Positions 17,501 to 23,500 of a DNA stretch of 36,356 bases are shown here, one piece after another (position 1 is the stretch's first letter; the number at the start of each line of letters is the position of its first letter). This stretch comes from Mycoplasmatota bacterium. Lineage in GTDB: Bacteria; Bacillota_I; Bacilli_A; RF39; UBA660. The stretch lies in assembly GCA_012727915.1 (NCBI GenBank), contig JAAYGD010000005.1, positions 1 to 36,356 of the forward strand, in the 5' to 3' direction. Position numbers: made by a program.

Positions 17501-20500
17501 AGTTAAAATACATACCTACTATATTTCTTCCATTAGTAAATTCTTTATAATTCATTTTTCTTTTTCCTTCTAGTTGTAGTGATTCAATTAAAATTATACC
17601 ATCATTAGTTTTAACCCTAATTCCATCTTTAATATCTATTATTTCTCCAATATTACCAGGATAATTTCCTATTAATTTAGATGCTTCCCAAATCTTACAT
17701 ATTTTTCCATCTAAAAAACTATATGATCCTGGCCATGGATTTAAACCTCTTATTTTATTATATATATTATAAGTAGAATCATTCCAATCTATTTTCTCAT
17801 CTTCCCTTTTTATATTATATGCATAAGTGGCTTCTTCATTATTTTGTTTAACTCTATTAATATTATTATTAATTATATTAGGTAAAGTTTTTTCCAATAA
17901 ATCTCTTCCTAAAAAACTAAGTCTATCATGCAATGAACCAACATTTTCTGTTTCTCCGATCATTATTTTTTCAAATGAAATAATATCCCCAGTATCCATT
18001 CCTTCATCCATAAACATTATTGTAATACCAGTTTCAGTATATCCATTTAAAATTGCTCTATGAATTGGTGCACCTCCCCTTAAGTTTGGCAGTATTGATG
18101 CATGAACATTAATACAACCATACTTAGGACAAGCTAAAATTTCTTTAGGAATTATTTGGCCATATGCACAAGTTACTATTATATCTGGTTTTTCATTTAA
18201 TACTTCTTGAAATTCTTTTCTGATTTTAATTGGTTGAAATATTTTTATATTATTCTTTTCAGCGATTATTTTAATTGGACTTTTTTTATTATCTTTATCA
18301 GGTTGAGTAACTACTCCAATAACATTTGTATTTTCAATTAAATACTCAAAAACAGGAACAGAAAATATAGGTGTTCCCATAAATATTACTCTCAAATTTT
18401 TCATTATATCCACCTTGTAACTGGTTTAACTCTCTTATTAGGATTATATTGTTCAAAAAAATTAACAAAGAAATCAATAAAAGCTTCTAAATATGAATCA
18501 TCATCTTTTACAATTGCGTCCACATTAATTATTGATTGAAGTTCTAAAGAAAAATAATAATCCTCTATATATATATACATAGCTTCATCCAATTCTCTAG
18601 CTTTCTTTATACACTCTTCATTATCTAGTTTACATGAACCAACATACTTCTTATAATAATGAACCAATTTTTTACTAAAATTATCATCATCCATAAATTC
18701 ACAATTAACTATTTCATTATAATGTTTAAATAATTTATTATTCATATTTACCTCCCCAATAACTTTCCTATATCACTAAATGTAATAATAGCCATCAATA
18801 TCATTAACAATGAAAATCCAATCATATTAACCGTATTTTCTATTTTGATTGGAATAGGTTTTCTTCTTACTTTTTCAATAATTAAAAACAATACTCTTCC
18901 TCCATCAAATGCTGGAAATGGAATTAAATTTATAAATCCAACATTAATACCTAGAAACGCTACTAAAGTTAATACTGATTCAAATCCAGAATCTACACTA
19001 GCCTCTACAACACTATATATTCCAACCGGACCCGCAAGATTATCAACACCTAGCTTTCCTACAATCAATCTATTTATTACTTTAAACATAGAAACAATTG
19101 TATTTTTAAATTCTATAAATGGATAAGTAATAACATCAATAAAGCCTTTCTTATCCTTTTGTATTATTTCAAAGCCAAATACATAACTTTCTTCTTCTAA
19201 TTCCAAATTTTTTGTTGGTATAATAAACACATTTTTAAGTTCCCCTTTAGAATCTTCAACTTTAAAATTAATTCCATCTTTTACATATTCGGTTTCAATT
19301 AAAACCATATATAAATCATCAATAGAGTTAGTTTTATATTTTCCTACTTCTAATATTTTATCTCCTTCTTTTAGTTCAGAATTATATGCATTATATCCTT
19401 CTAATAATTTTCCTACATAAGGACTGGGATCTTTTGCGCCATATATAATTGCTATTAAAAATAATACTAATATAGACAATATAAAATTAAATGAAGCTCC
19501 CGCAATCATAATTGTAAATCTTTCAAAAAAGGTTTTACTTTGAATTTTTTTAGATTTAGGAATTTTTTTATCATCTTCTATTTCTTCACCAGCTATACTG
19601 ACATAACCTCCAATAGGTAAAGCTTTAATAAAATATTCAGTTTCATCATTTTTTCTTTTGAATTTACGAATTGTAGGACCCATCCCAATTGAAAAAGCAT
19701 AAACATGAACTCCTGCTCTTTTAGCAAAAATAAAATGGCCCAATTCATGAACAAATATAATTATACCAAGTATAAAAATAAAAATTAATATATTTATTAC
19801 CCACATAAAGCCTCCTATATGATTGATATGAAAAATATATAACCAATTAAAACAAATATTAAACTATCAAATCTGTCTAATATTCCACCATGACCAAATA
19901 TAATATTAGAATAATCCTTAACATTATAAAATCTTTTTATTGAACTAAATAATAAATCTCCCAATTGACTAATTACCGCTAAAAACATTGTAATAGAAAC
20001 TAATAACAACAAATTAATTGAATCATTAATATTAATATAATAAATGGTAGATGCTATTATAGTTCCAAATAATACTCCCACAACCAAGCCCACAATACTT
20101 TTCTTTGGAGATATTTTGGGGCACAATTTTTTCCTTCCAGATAACATTCCGGAAATTAATGCATAAGTATCCGTCATAGTAGAAATTGATAATAAATAAA
20201 TAAAAGTTTTAATATCATAAGCTCTAATAAATATTAATAAATTAAATACAAACCCAATCATTAATACTATTCCCAATATAAACAAAGCATCAATAATATT
20301 ATACTTATCAAAATCATTATATATTATAAGAGGAATCAAGAAAAATATTATCATAATACCAATTATTCTATAGTCTAAAAATAAAGAATAATTATCAACA
20401 TTAAATTTACTTAATATTAAAAACAATGTACTTATATACGATAAAAACTTAACAAAAGAAGGAGTCTTTCTTTTTAATTCTTTTAATCCCAATAGTTCTT

Positions 20501-23500
20501 TTAGAGCAAGTAATCCTAATACAGAAACTGTTAATTTAAAAACATTTCCTCCATATATAATTACTGGTACAAATATTATTATCATTATTATTATTCCAAT
20601 AATTCTCTTTTTCATACTCTCACCATATTAATTATATATTAGTTGTTTATTTATATCAAGTTATTTAATACCTATACCTCTATATAATCTTTTGTCTTCT
20701 AATGATTTATTATATGTATCAGTAATCAAACTATCTCCATCAGGATTTGTATTTTTTCTTTTTGATATTTCATCATAATAACCAACGTTTGACTTTATAA
20801 TAGAATCTTCATCAATCAAGAACAAATTTGCTCTCATATAACAAGTTCTAAGTATTGTTTTGCTATCTAACAAACCATCTTTCTTTTTGTATTTTTTTAA
20901 AACACTTTGAGTTTTTTTCAAATTATCTAATATTATTCCACTAAATATTGATGTATTTATTTCTTTTGGCATATTAGAAAAGCTCATATAAAACCCAGCA
21001 GTTATAAGAATGTTTTTATCAACCTCGAAATTATTTAATAACATCTCTGATTCCAAATGATCATTCATAAAAATCAAATTATACTTGGCTTCAATTAATT
21101 CTTCTTTTATATCTTCATTATCACTCTTATCTATACTATCTTGTATCATGGATAAAAATATCCTATTAATATCATTATTGAAAAGCTCATCGCAATATAT
21201 TAAATATGAAGACAAAGGAATTCCATATTTAACTTTAGAATAATTTTGAAGTTGTTCTTCTTTTTTTAACTTTTCAATTTCTTCAATTACTATGTTGAAT
21301 ATCTTATTAAATAAGTATCGACTTGATAAATCTGTAGAATCTTGAATAATGCATTCTTCATCATTTAATCGCCCTAATAACAATTCATTTTTAATATGTA
21401 CACTTGCATCAATCATTTCTAATAATACATGTTTTTTGATATTTATATTATCTTTTATTAGTTTATTAATTTCAGACAATAACTCCAATGCATCTTCAAA
21501 TTCTTTTTCTTTCTTTCCTCCAACAATCTCAAAAAAAGATAAGTCTTTGTAGATTTCTTTTCTTTTATTTATTAATGCTTCTTCTTTTTTAAAATTTAAG
21601 TAATCAAGTTCAAATTCATCCATAAAACCCTCCATAAATATATATAATATACTATATTTATTTATTTTTAAACCATATTTGATAAAAAAATATTTTTATG
21701 CTAAAATATTTTCTTAATCGAGGTGATATTATGAAATATTCATCAAATTTTGATTTTTATTTGTTACCATGTGGCGCTATTTTCAGTGAGTTTTTATACC
21801 AATATAAATATATAGATGAAGTTCCATCTTATAATAAAAATGATATAAAACCCATTATTGACATTGCAACCGAAAACAAAGTTTTCACATCATCTTGTTA
21901 TCATAGTGATGCAATAAAATTAGCTGAAATAATTAAGAACCAATATAATTCTCCAGAGTTAGAAGAAAAAACTAATAATATTATTGATTCTCATATGGGC
22001 ACTTTATTGTTAAAAGCATTATATGATTATAATTTTGCGGATTCAAATGGACAAAAAAGAATAGATACTGAAATAGAAACATTATTAAGTCTTAATAACT
22101 TAGCTCTTACTGGTATGCCAGAAAAGCCTGGAGGCTTTAAAAAAATATTTAAAAAAAATAAGGATTAAATAATTCTTATTTTTTTGACATTATTTTTAAT
22201 ATCTCATCAAAATTGTCATCTTTTGCAATTATGTTTTTTCTAATTGATTTGCATTTATCACATTTATAAACAATTTTAAATGTATCTTTATATTTTTCTA
22301 TATCAATAGGAATTAGATATCCTTTGCATTCGGATAATCTATCTCCTGGATTAATATCCAAATGAATGGAATGCAAACAATTTGGGCAATGATCTCTTGA
22401 GGAATATACAAGAGGTATTACTTCCTTTTTACAATTATAACAGATAAATTTTTCATCTATTTCATTAAATCTTTTCATTTAGAATTACTTTAATATATGT
22501 TTTTTTACCCTTTTGAATTACTATTTCTTTTCTATTTACAATATAGTTAGTATCCATTATTTTTTCTTTATCTATTATTATTCCACCTTGTTCTATTAAC
22601 CTTCTTGCCTCTGATTTGGATGGTACCAAATTAGTTTTTACCATTAAATCAATTACATTAATATTATTATCTTCTATTTTTACTGTAGGCATATTATTTG
22701 GATTATTACCACTAAAAATTTCTTCAGATAACTTTTGAACTTTAATAGCTTCTTCTTCTCCATGAACTAATTTTGTTACTTCAAAAGCCATTACCTTTTT
22801 AGCCTTTATAATGTCTTCTTTGCACATTTTTTTAATTTCAGATACTGGATAATCACTAAAGAAACATAATAATCTTTCAACATCTTCATCATATGAATTA
22901 ATAAACATTTGATAAAAATCATATACTGTGGTTTTTTCTCTAGATACCCATAAAGTACCAGAAGAAGTTTTCCCCATTTTTTCGCCATCAGCTTTTACTA
23001 ACAAAGGACAGGTTAATGCTTCTATTTCTTTATTTTTAATATTTGATAAATTATTCATCTTTCTAAATAATTCAGTGCCCGCTACCATGTTAGCCCATTG
23101 ATCAGAACCACCTACTTGTAATACACAACCTTCGGTTTCATTTAAATGTACAAAATCATATGCTTGCATTAACATATAACCCATTTCTAAAAAAGTTAAT
23201 CCCCCTTCTTCTAATCTTTTCTTATAACAATCAGTAGATAACATTTTATTTACATTAAAATGAACTCCAACTTTTCTCATAAAATCTATATAATTATCTT
23301 TCATCCATGATACATTATCTACTATTTTAGCGGGATTGTTACCATCAACATCAACAAATTTTTTTACTAATTCTATTACTTCTTTTTTATTGTATTCAAC
23401 TTGTTCCTTTGATAAGGTTTTTCTTAAATCACTTCTTCCTGAAGGATCACCTATTAAAGCAGTAGCTCCTCCAATTAATACTATTGGATGATGTCCCATT

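Follow-up and report, generated by a model that had tools for sequence, protein, structure and literature searches.

The cdsA locus of a walled RF39 bacterium with no recognised route to phosphatidate: a case for lipid scavenging

In the available sections of PMC1950310, PlsC is called universally conserved and PlsX and PlsY essential where PlsB is absent. Patescibacteria (CPR) and Nanoarchaeum-type organisms have no lipid pathway and are inferred to take up lipids from other cells (PMC7242380 and PMC13059738, as far as their accessible text goes). The bacterium described here resembles both in the absence of lipid synthesis, in its small genome and in lipids that would come from other cells; it differs in being one of the Bacilli, with Mur ligases, a PBP, LtaS-like enzymes and Lgt, and in having kept CdsA-PgsA-PgpP. 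Unlike in Patescibacteria, the trait is patchy, relatives carrying a ligase-PlsC cassette, and is not known to involve a host or attachment. Fatty-acid synthesis is likewise lost in the RF39 bacteria of Nayfach 2019, for whose fatty-acid auxotrophy it was suggested that free fatty acids are taken up through the Firmicute kinase (Fak) route (accessible part of PMC6784871). The reduced gut lineages UBA1242, Rs-D84 and UBA9783 are reported to lack lipid synthesis and were read as partner-dependent or scavenging (PMC12306168), in a study that does not treat acyltransferases or retained head-group genes at the level of single enzymes. Staphylococcus aureus and Bacillus subtilis, finally, possess an LtaS-diacylglycerol (DAG)-DgkB recycling loop (excerpts of PMC11962490).

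The window, the whole stretch of 36,356 nucleotides analysed here, belongs to a genome (G000) in 76 contigs that is 93.8% complete and includes a mis-binned contig (C74) from a sister species. It was compared with its genus (seven genomes, four of them at least 90% complete, some counts covering four) and with 131 genomes of the family; every genome compared is a bin, and the case for scavenging consists wholly of absences in searches. The features of the window that bear on lipids, and those flanking cdsA, are the following.

5996..6817, minus strand: DUF368-type undecaprenyl phosphate translocase (PF04018, E 5e-35)
16383..16916, minus strand: lspA, lipoprotein signal peptidase (PF01252, E 1e-35)
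18404..18745, minus strand: 113-aa protein of no family, next after rseP (no Pfam match)
18748..19806, minus strand: rseP, site-2 protease (PF02163, E 5e-63)
19815..20615, minus strand: cdsA, phosphatidate cytidylyltransferase (266 aa, PF01148, E 3.7e-45)
20661..21635, minus strand: 324-aa soluble protein of no family (no Pfam match)
31254..31613, minus strand: pilin-like protein (PF07963, E 7e-6)

An earlier note on this DNA had placed cdsA at 19815..20585; the identity of the gene stands, while 20585 is the second ATG and the true ORF extends to 20615, CdsA of three genus mates likewise having 266 aa when counted from the first ATG. The protein has about six membrane segments and matches the family profile over its whole length (73.5 bits against the NCBIfam equivalog, whose cut-off is 385). 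In an alignment with Thermotoga CdsA (4Q2E, E 1.7e-17) the residues of its metal- and CTP-binding motifs line up, its C-terminal D/K/H/D catalytic motifs are kept, and with dN/dS of 0.036/0.647 (versus G006) the gene is intact and under purifying selection. The fixed downstream neighbour is rseP, found after cdsA in 35/35 loci; the protein at 18404..18745 belongs to a cluster (c3) with 11 members among these loci. uppS lies immediately upstream of cdsA in six of the 35, and the ORF at 20661..21635, which is not conserved there in G001 or G003, occupies the spot of uppS in some relatives.

The nearest named relatives of full-length CdsA, besides one contig at 93%, are Bacilli (32-35% identity), and EzrA, Spo0A, ComK and DivIVA are all present in the genome; membership in Patescibacteria is thereby ruled out. 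In nineteen DNA runs from nine studies (landfill, bioreactor, wastewater, digester, manure) 0.6 or more of the words are present; a gut run is not among the 19, so that an animal host would not be the lipid source there.

No known acyltransferase was recognised in G000. PF01553 gave no match at E<=1 (10 of 14 control genomes matched), and no match was seen for PlsY, PlsX, DegV, Dak2, ACP, AMP-binding or MBOAT, for which 8, 9, 6, 8, 11, 12 and 4 of the 14 controls were positive. Thirty-two PlsC proteins of the family were made into a profile, which is sensitive enough to retrieve three PlsC-like family proteins of divergent sequence at E 1e-18 to 4e-28. It found nothing among the 12,931 segments of the six reading frames (best E 0.57), and the NHx4D...FPEG motif occurs in none of the segments, versus 31/32 controls. 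Pfam scans of 631 of the 951 ORFs revealed no PlsB/C/X/Y, MBOAT or AT3 acyltransferase and no fatty-acid synthase core enzyme, three unassigned short-chain dehydrogenases being present; the other 320 ORFs, for the most part below 115 aa, P-loop proteins, long and soluble, or obvious housekeeping genes, were taken in by the six-frame profile searches. The places where plsX, plsY, fakA, acpP and uppS usually stand lie mid-contig in G000, flanked by other genes. In the genus PlsC-type proteins, PlsY and AMP-binding ligase are each 0/7, and ACP and FakA each 0/4; Dak2 is 0/5 in the genomes searched, and DegV (FakB) is absent from G000 and G006. An archaeal-type ether lipid route finds no support either (GGGP synthase/PcrB, PF01884, 0/5 genomes), and as to isoprenoid supply the 631 scanned proteins include no MEP, mevalonate or prenyl-synthase family. 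With synthase core enzymes, ligase, ACP, Fak and PlsB/C/X/Y all absent from these searches, the bacterium has no known route by which fatty acids could be made, activated or attached to glycerol phosphate.

Across the family the pattern is wider. PlsX and PlsY are each 0/131 (PlsY also 0/5 in further genomes beyond these), FakB (DegV) is found in 4, PlsC-type proteins in 86 and CdsA in 126. The Fak route as known therefore cannot run here, in which this family departs from the proposal made for RF39. The 45 genomes without PlsC-type protein (34%) agree with the 38 of 101 counted by the earlier note, whose absences of acyltransferases, Fak, ACP and synthase, including PF01553 in 0/7 of the genus, were all reproduced and, for PlsX and PlsY, reach further than it had stated. 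That the missing genes are an artefact of binning or of an insensitive search, as the fragmented assembly with its foreign contig and the loose first look with which the genome search begins might suggest, is hardly credible: PlsC-type proteins are missed in 45 genomes and CdsA, the control for bin gaps, in five of the same 131, the PlsC-negative set includes near-closed assemblies of 3-11 contigs (G126, G085, G050, G097, G048), the gene is missing from every genus member, and unfiltered family-built profiles are equally blank. One of these few-contig genomes, G048 (another genus, 760,795 bases), was read whole and gives the same picture as G000.

The PlsC-negative genomes are not all alike. 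AMP-binding ligase is lacking in 17/45 of them versus 6/86 PlsC-positives, and UppS in 22/45 versus 19/86, counts in which kin are not independent. UppS occurs in 90/131 genomes (69%), the same as the frequency for RF39 in the accessible part of PMC7301438 (68.7%). Where PlsC is present, a plsC-ligase-plsC cassette occupies 22/30 loci, of the 59 genomes whose PlsC match is strong 58 also have an AMP-binding enzyme, and the two PlsC copies fall into two clades at all four loci holding both (4/4). This cassette resembles the acyl-CoA route of Escherichia coli FadD-PlsB-PlsC and PlsD of Clostridium butyricum, with a predicted PlsC homolog per position; it differs from them in that the family has no PlsB, PlsX or PlsY, and the cassette is missing from G000 and its genus.

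The main rival to scavenging is de novo acylation through enzymes of another fold, combined with an unrecognised activation of fatty acids. Enzyme replacement does occur, the PlsC homolog PlsD being able to replace PlsB (according to excerpts of PMC1950310). The candidate in the genus is an alcohol-acetyltransferase/CAT-fold protein (C62:2749-4047) with a DUF6320 membrane partner, which has an intact HxxxDG motif and is AATase/PapA-like in features and fold; its gene is found in 5/7 genus genomes at 63-87% identity, including all four that are at least 90% complete, so that the dismissal of this WS/DGAT-like gene in the earlier note was too quick. Elsewhere E2-catalytic-domain proteins beside the ligase may be considered: a PF00198 protein directly precedes, in G054 and G102, the ligase that most resembles the cassette type, and among the 28/45 PlsC-negatives with an AMP-binding enzyme an other-fold candidate acyltransferase stands at 2/20 such loci. 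The genus nevertheless has no long-chain acyl donor (neither the ligase nor ACP nor FakA is found), and the donor that the genome can make is acetyl-CoA (a PFOR-like gene upstream, PduL, AckA). The CAT-fold gene is present in only 5/45 PlsC-negatives and 13/86 positives and is absent from G048, and neither G000 nor G048 yields a match to the E2-like protein. We consider acylation of this kind unlikely. It counts against scavenging that 183 proteins of G000 fall into no Pfam family; the 42 of them that G048 shares were assessed by eye.

The lipid genes that the earlier note listed as kept are indeed there, several below cut-off. PgsA scores above its NCBIfam cut-off, and another CDP-alcohol transferase reaches no cut-off; YqeG/PgpP, GpsA, TagD, Lgt and Lsp are present, together with an MGS-like GT4 (below cut-off), two DgkA-family genes and three sulfatase-family proteins, also below cut-off, two of them LtaS-like (305 and 111 against 970) and one closer to OpgB. 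As lspA in the window is accompanied by lgt on contig C41, which is found in 5/5 genomes searched, diacylglyceryl anchors are presumably used. The soluble DAG kinase DgkB is absent (0/4 in the genus, 0/5 genomes searched, a family-built profile being blank). The kept set, an LtaS-type enzyme, CdsA, PgsA, PGP phosphatase and GpsA, amounts to the lipoteichoic-acid/diacylglycerol recycling loop minus DgkB, and differs from the loop of S. aureus and B. subtilis in this and in having no de novo input of phosphatidate (PA). The loop varies between genomes, GpsA having no match in G048, which counts against scavenging. CdsA is retained in 42/45 PlsC-negatives.

Two substitutions in the genus CdsA count against scavenging. 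The Glu of KxxEG is present in 0/4 genus sequences versus 30/31 others of the family, and the Pro of PGHGG (FGHGG in the genus) in 0/4 versus 31/31. They could mean that CdsA has shifted to another lipid substrate or to a reverse or kinase-like use, phosphatidylglycerol (PG) being used as imported, a reading that the want of a proven PA source also favours. The metal- and CTP-binding residues shared with 4Q2E and the retention of PgsA and PgpP argue against such a shift, which about 41 other PlsC-negative, CdsA-bearing genomes do not need (10 were aligned, all with the Glu and the Pro); we regard it as quite improbable.

The weak link of the loop is the DAG kinase: DgkB is absent and DgkA, a putative DAG kinase here, is not enriched in PlsC-negatives, which also counts against scavenging. 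The conserved DgkA copy (C59) is common to 7/7 genus genomes and lies in ybeY-dgkA-cdd-era, the same place as in five further genus copies; this is the gene order around the B. subtilis undecaprenol kinase. The other copy, present in 2/7, branches with homologs that are fused or adjacent to PAP2 (98/89 and 91/92, in a tree without characterised outgroup). Both match the solved E. coli-type DgkA (E 1e-12 and 1e-6, in a comparison list that contained no UdpK structure), and their catalytic Glu/Asn/Asp/Lys positions align with it; other lipid kinases were not found in the genus. DgkA is missing in 6/45 PlsC-negatives and 12/86 positives (p=1), hence not enriched with PlsC loss, and DgkA or DgkB occurs in 43/45 PlsC-negatives. 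The earlier note had scavenged DAG entering a cell-attached parasite through a DgkA-type kinase, and for a dedicated enzyme, the second copy, speak the aligned catalytic positions, two copies in 9/45 PlsC-negatives versus 6/86 positives, and the absence of DgkB in 11/15 two-copy genomes versus 36/116 others (p 0.003), as does, for attachment, a Tad + VirB4/VirD4 cluster syntenic between G000 and G048. The second copy is, however, present in only those two genus genomes and belongs to a PAP2-linked group, 13 genomes negative for both PlsC and DgkB have a single copy, and UppS is also absent in 9/15 two-copy genomes versus 32/116, a loss that gives DgkA an alternative job. The B. subtilis and S. 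mutans homologs, moreover, are undecaprenol kinases (accessible parts of PMC5723303 and PMC10457818). Entry by this enzyme is thus unsupported, and the reading as a whole seems rather unlikely.

UppS itself is absent (0/4 in the genus, 0/5 genomes searched), so that undecaprenyl phosphate would not be synthesised. A candidate C55 salvage kit is present, comprising BacA, DedA, DUF368, four DUF2207-domain ORFs and DgkA. Gram-positive membranes are reported to contain undecaprenol, which B. subtilis DgkA phosphorylates (excerpts of PMC5723303). The operon kinase belongs to PF01219, as do the B. subtilis and S. mutans enzymes now named UdpK (formerly DgkA), and shares the gene order with that of B. 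subtilis; with UppS missing it would serve supply as well as recycling, and a DAG activity would be new. Phosphorylation of both undecaprenol and DAG by this protein is the most likely form of the DAG-kinase step, at somewhat less than even chances; PA might otherwise be imported as such or made by an unrecognised kinase.

We propose that the bacterium probably scavenges finished glycerolipids and the C55 carrier from other cells. Loss of phosphatidate synthesis and dependence on an outside supply, as claimed in the earlier note, thus hold without the DgkA entry, and the case is stronger than before since acyl activation and UppS are also gone and PlsX and PlsY are absent from the whole survey. 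Other bacteria, living or lysed, would supply PG, DAG or PA and, as carrier, undecaprenol in free or phosphorylated form. LtaS would make DAG from PG for each teichoic-acid unit and Lgt would use up PG; the same acyl pair must then cycle from DAG through PA and CDP-DAG back to PG, which would explain why cdsA, pgsA, pgpP and gpsA are kept, and foreign lipids may be re-headed to PG by the same enzymes. A cytoplasmic Zn phospholipase-C-fold protein (PF00882, E 9e-12) is a lead, and a doubtful one, for stripping head groups to DAG. Its His/Asp/Glu zinc ligands (H7 D37 H97 D101 H105 H129 E133 D137) are invariant in 27 sequences, its best fold match is 1ah7 (Z 6.2, rmsd 3.5, 149 aligned), tied within 1 with S1/P1 nucleases (Z 5.5, 5.1), and a homolog in G024 is fused to a PlsC-like domain; its presence in 22/45 PlsC-negatives versus 51/86 positives is no enrichment and speaks against a scavenging role. 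No lipid importer was identified in the genome, which also counts against scavenging.

Lipid is also present in digester feed, so that lipids from other cells need not be obtained by contact. It is tentatively conceivable, if on balance unlikely, that this walled Gram-positive Bacilli clade consists of obligate epibionts of Gram-positives, which take their entire membrane, glycerolipids as well as the C55 carrier, from the host by contact. The chromosomal Tad + VirB4/VirD4 cluster and the many pilins would be the docking gear, and a kinase acting on both undecaprenol and DAG would drive a closed DAG-PA-CDP-DAG-PG loop in which the acquired lipid is re-headed. By motif count the genome encodes 16 pilin-like proteins, that at 31254..31613 among them, which bear on a contact lifestyle as a lead only. 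If the epibiont reading were true, the way of life of Patescibacteria would have arisen a second time, independently and in a transition that is still graded, with the relatives that have the acyl-CoA/PlsC cassette as its intermediates.

We found no publication stating this lipid dependence in the literature within reach (subscription journals lay mostly outside it, and RF39 supplements may tabulate the genes). A walled Bacilli family breaks the rule of PlsC/PlsX/PlsY conservation, the latter two being absent throughout and PlsC-type proteins from a third of its members, and the published idea that RF39 feed on fatty acids via Fak is undercut. Lipid dependence may account for the failure to bring such bacteria into pure culture: cassette-free members would need phospholipid plus undecaprenol, or a Gram-positive partner, and cassette-bearing ones free fatty acid. 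Either outcome would be new, be it lipid taken up wholesale through a peptidoglycan wall or a novel kind of acyltransferase/acyl-activation system.

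The cdsA gene of the genome under study (G000; 872,930 bases, 76 contigs, 25% GC, 93.8% complete) lies at:

19815-20615, minus strand: cdsA, 266 aa (PF01148, E 3.7e-45), contig C21, the whole of which is the window

G000 CdsA aligns with Thermotoga CdsA at E 1.7e-17, the motifs D, SPxK, GD..S..KR....KD and GHGG.LDR.D being intact in the alignment, and the dN/dS of cdsA is 0.036/0.647 against the genus mate G006 and 0.14-0.22 against the genus mates G001 and G003. In the four genus sequences KxxEG is without its Glu and PGHGG without its Pro; the Glu is present in 30/31 and the Pro in 31/31 of the other family sequences. 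rseP directly follows cdsA, as in all 35 family loci; uppS, immediately 5' of cdsA in six of these 35, is not found there in G000. A cdsA on contig C74 (L166) is not a second copy: the contig is 81% identical to window positions 20277-21816, over 339 bases of its cdsA part it matches G006 exactly, and it is a mis-binned sister-species contig, the same DNA being found in a bin assigned to an unrelated lineage (L316). The window also encodes an FG-GAP beta-propeller surface protein (307-3471, minus strand, 1054 aa), adjoining a 539-aa protein without family.

No PlsC-type acyltransferase was detected throughout the genus: PF01553 gives zero matches at E<=1 in 7/7 genomes, which reproduces the claim of the earlier note. 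PlsY and AMP-binding enzymes are likewise not found in 7/7, nor PlsX and DegV in the two genus members searched (G000 and G006). ACP, FakA, DgkB, UppS and the PcrB ether route each score 0/5 (G000, G001, G003, G006 and G048, a PlsC-negative genome of another genus), while MBOAT is found in G048 only among the genomes searched (0/4 in the genus). Unfiltered searches of the 12,931 six-frame segments of G000 with profiles of 32 family PlsC proteins and of 20 family ligases gave best E values of 0.57 and 0.44, respectively; as a control, the PlsC profile gives E values between 1e-18 and 4e-28 for three divergent PlsC-like proteins of the family. None of these segments contains the NHx4D...FPEG motif, which is found in 31/32 controls. 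With a family PlsC as query, tblastn matched contig C56, but through the PgsA part of a PgsA-PlsC fusion; one such fusion exists in the family (L030:832-2022). Pfam scans took in 631 of the 951 G000 ORFs and revealed among these no known glycerolipid-type acyltransferase, fatty-acid synthase core enzyme or isoprenoid pathway family; outside the scans were most ORFs shorter than 115 aa, 84 proteins of P-loop or long soluble type, 32 that position and sequence marked as housekeeping, 15 from small pieces inspected by eye, and a further 11, six of which were compared with NCBIfam. MiaA, which needs DMAPP, is present (L083:3-677) though no isoprenoid pathway family is seen among the scanned proteins. 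What we take to be the usual sites of plsX, plsY, fakA, acpP and uppS (by rpmF, der, parE, recG/rpmB, rnc and frr) are mid-contig in G000, with other genes adjoining. On the strength of these sites, the CdsA control and the 0/7 in the genus, a bin gap is rejected as the cause of the absences.

Every family search used one fixed set of 131 genomes from 130 genera, each with a completeness of 85% or more, and negative genomes were obtained from it by difference. The absences extend to the family, with PlsX and PlsY in 0/131 each and DegV in four. PF01553 is matched in 86 genomes, AMP-binding in 108, CdsA in 126, DgkA in 113, DgkB in 84, UppS in 90, the Zn-PLC in 73 and a CAT-fold protein in 18. 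The loss of PlsC-type enzymes described in the earlier note is confirmed, its share now standing at 45/131 (34%), against a miss rate of 4% for a core gene; the PlsC-negatives include assemblies of 3 to 11 contigs (G126, G085, G050, G097 and G048). AMP-binding enzymes are absent from 17/45 PlsC-negatives versus 6/86 PlsC-positives and UppS from 22/45 versus 19/86, tests of such co-loss being overstated because kin are not independent; seven genomes jointly lack PlsC, ligase, DgkB and UppS. A single clade of PlsC-negatives is rejected, these genomes being scattered over a weakly supported 35-sequence CdsA tree, and repeated loss or gain of PlsC would be likely.

Where plsC is present, an acyl-CoA-ligase-like gene stands beside it in 22 of the best 30 loci (L001-L030), and many plsC pairs are ~2.3 kb or ~0.6 kb apart by PF01553 match positions. 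The two copies belong to different clades in 4/4 loci having both. Since PlsD is able to stand in for PlsB, according to a passage of PMC1950310, we infer that this plsC-ligase-plsC cassette would be an acyl-CoA route in which either position is served by its own PlsC homolog. The cassette with two PlsC clades occurs in a family without PlsB, PlsX or PlsY.

The ligases of PlsC-negative genomes have other neighbours:

L061-L080, e.g. L067:4014-7718 and L075:1341-5970; L275-L277: AMP-binding ligase with hybrid sensor kinase (5-8 TM), 15/20 loci
L065:5710-6576 (-): stand-alone E2 (PF00198) catalytic-domain protein, directly before a cassette-type ligase
L068:2601-3485 (-): stand-alone E2 (PF00198) catalytic-domain protein, directly before a cassette-type ligase

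The ligase is paired with a membrane sensor kinase in 15/20 loci and with an E2-fold acyltransferase domain in two, those of G054 and G102; the E2 proteins are candidates for a new glycerolipid acyltransferase. As a hidden acyltransferase of the PlsC-negatives these neighbours were rejected, the majority being the sensor kinase and the two E2-fold proteins being absent from G000. Neither G000 nor G048 has the ligase-sensor pair, which resembles a signal-synthase/sensor cassette or one that senses fatty acids. The same sensor adjoins the three PlsC-like or PLC-PlsC fusion genes outside the cassette that were examined (in G024, G119 and G035), hence more than 45 genomes may be without a housekeeping PlsC.

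We consider the scavenging of finished lipid to be the best reading, and a reasonably probable one. Its main rival, which we regard as unlikely, is acylation by an acyltransferase system of unrecognised kind. Two G000 proteins were considered as possible unrecognised enzymes:

C62:2749-4047: CAT-fold protein, alcohol-acetyltransferase/PapA-like, with HxxxDG, paired with DUF6320
C33:2494-3477: PLC/P1-fold protein, zinc ligands conserved, signal peptide not seen by eye

The CAT-fold protein is found in 5/7 genus genomes; however, it occurs in just 5/45 PlsC-negatives, G048 has no match to it, and no long-chain donor is visible. The PLC-fold protein was placed by a wider search only (no Foldseek match at E<=0.001), and its homolog in G024 is a fusion whose PlsC-like part scores E 2.4e-23; no commoner in PlsC-negatives, the PLC-fold protein is dismissed as a mark of scavengers. 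G048, read whole, has 547 of the 951 G000 proteins in common, including 42 of 183 without family, most of which are pilins or belong to a Tad/T4SS or a surface cluster, and these 42 show no acyltransferase sign by eye. G048 (L225-L268) has no GpsA match despite PgsA, TagD and LtaS.

Scavenging would feed a retained downstream pathway. G000 keeps PgsA (over cut-off), YqeG phosphatase, GpsA, TagD, Lgt, Lsp, an MGS-like glycosyltransferase, a flippase-like protein and a wall pathway (MraY, MurG, MurJ, PBP, FtsW). Of the three LtaS-type enzymes reported earlier, two are LtaS-like and the third is OpgB-like. In Staphylococcus aureus, as a section of PMC11962490 describes, LtaS-made DAG is returned to PG by such a loop; the G000 gene set is the same loop, but without DgkB. 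The loop would recycle DAG to PG, bringing in no acyl chains, which would explain why CdsA is retained in 42/45 PlsC-negatives. The phrase "diacylglycerol recycling" together with DgkB retrieved no paper.

DgkB was not found in G000 or the genus genomes searched and is discarded as the kinase of the loop. The DgkA of contig C59 sits in ybeY-dgkA-cdd-era, the gene order that also surrounds the only copy in five other genomes of the genus, and Gram-positive DgkA homologs are undecaprenol kinases according to portions of PMC5723303 and PMC10457818. A second DgkA (contig C67), clustering with PAP2-linked homologs, is present in G000 and G006 only, and at 2/7 genus genomes is ruled out as a required part. 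PAP2-DgkA fusions or neighbours occur within the family (L037:823-1839, L050, L054, L055), and several family genomes have tandem DgkA pairs inside the ybeY operon. DgkA is missing from 6/45 PlsC-negatives and 12/86 positives, hence is not enriched in the former; DgkA or DgkB is present in 43/45 PlsC-negatives, and 14/18 DgkA-negative genomes have DgkB. Double-DgkA genomes lack DgkB in 11/15 cases versus 36/116 of the others and UppS in 9/15 versus 32/116. As 13 genomes have a single DgkA, no PlsC and no DgkB, a putative dual-substrate DgkA-family kinase is the simplest fill of the gap. With UppS gone, BacA, DedA, DUF368 and DUF2207 proteins and DgkA would constitute a salvage kit for the C55 carrier.

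Three further loci of G000 were noted:

C19:9709-26419 (L101:9709-L102:7794); L258: Tad-like genes linked with VirB4, VirD4 and TrbL-like genes, same order in G048 at 41-70% identity
C34, L118:3900-12635; L225: nine-gene cluster, mostly membrane or secreted proteins without family, syntenic with G048, where a 512-aa member is 67% identical
L131:2607-7226 and L114:5826-6515: EssC-like FtsK ATPase (1539 aa) and WXG100 protein, type VII secretion system parts

The syntenic Tad/VirB4/VirD4 cluster looks chromosomal rather than mobile; with 16 pilin-like genes it is compatible with contact, and also with conjugation, competence or adhesion. A large GH94 cyclic-glucan-synthase-like protein is divided between two contigs (L097:2-6259, L144:10880-12235). 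Contig C16 carries a heliorhodopsin (E 1e-96), unexpected in an organism of anaerobic digesters. The cluster around it (L096:670-6971) includes DUF1295, DUF2177, PHP and GDPD, a kinase of choline/APH type, a sortase and an ice-binding-like domain; C32 has a photolyase gene (L116).

Parts of Nayfach 2019 (PMC6784871) state that RF39 has lost fatty-acid synthesis and suggest the Firmicute exogenous fatty-acid route. Decay of bactoprenol synthesis is reported in Wang 2020 (PMC7301438), the accessible text of which contains none of the terms acyltransferase, phospholipid and fatty acid; in that of Field 2024 (PMC10868615) a wall is predicted for most RF39 and the word lipid does not appear. Begmatov 2025 (PMC12306168) deals with other lineages. 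A search of main texts, supplements lying outside it, found no paper on PlsX/Y/C loss in RF39. Patescibacteria, as treated in sections of Probst 2020 and PMC13059738, offer a precedent. Between 0.6 and 0.92 of the words of positions 18700-21700 are matched in 19 DNA runs, which come from nine studies of landfill, bioreactor, wastewater, digester or manure material, with no gut run among them; no RNA run is listed with a match. The lipid supply must be other microbes or feed.
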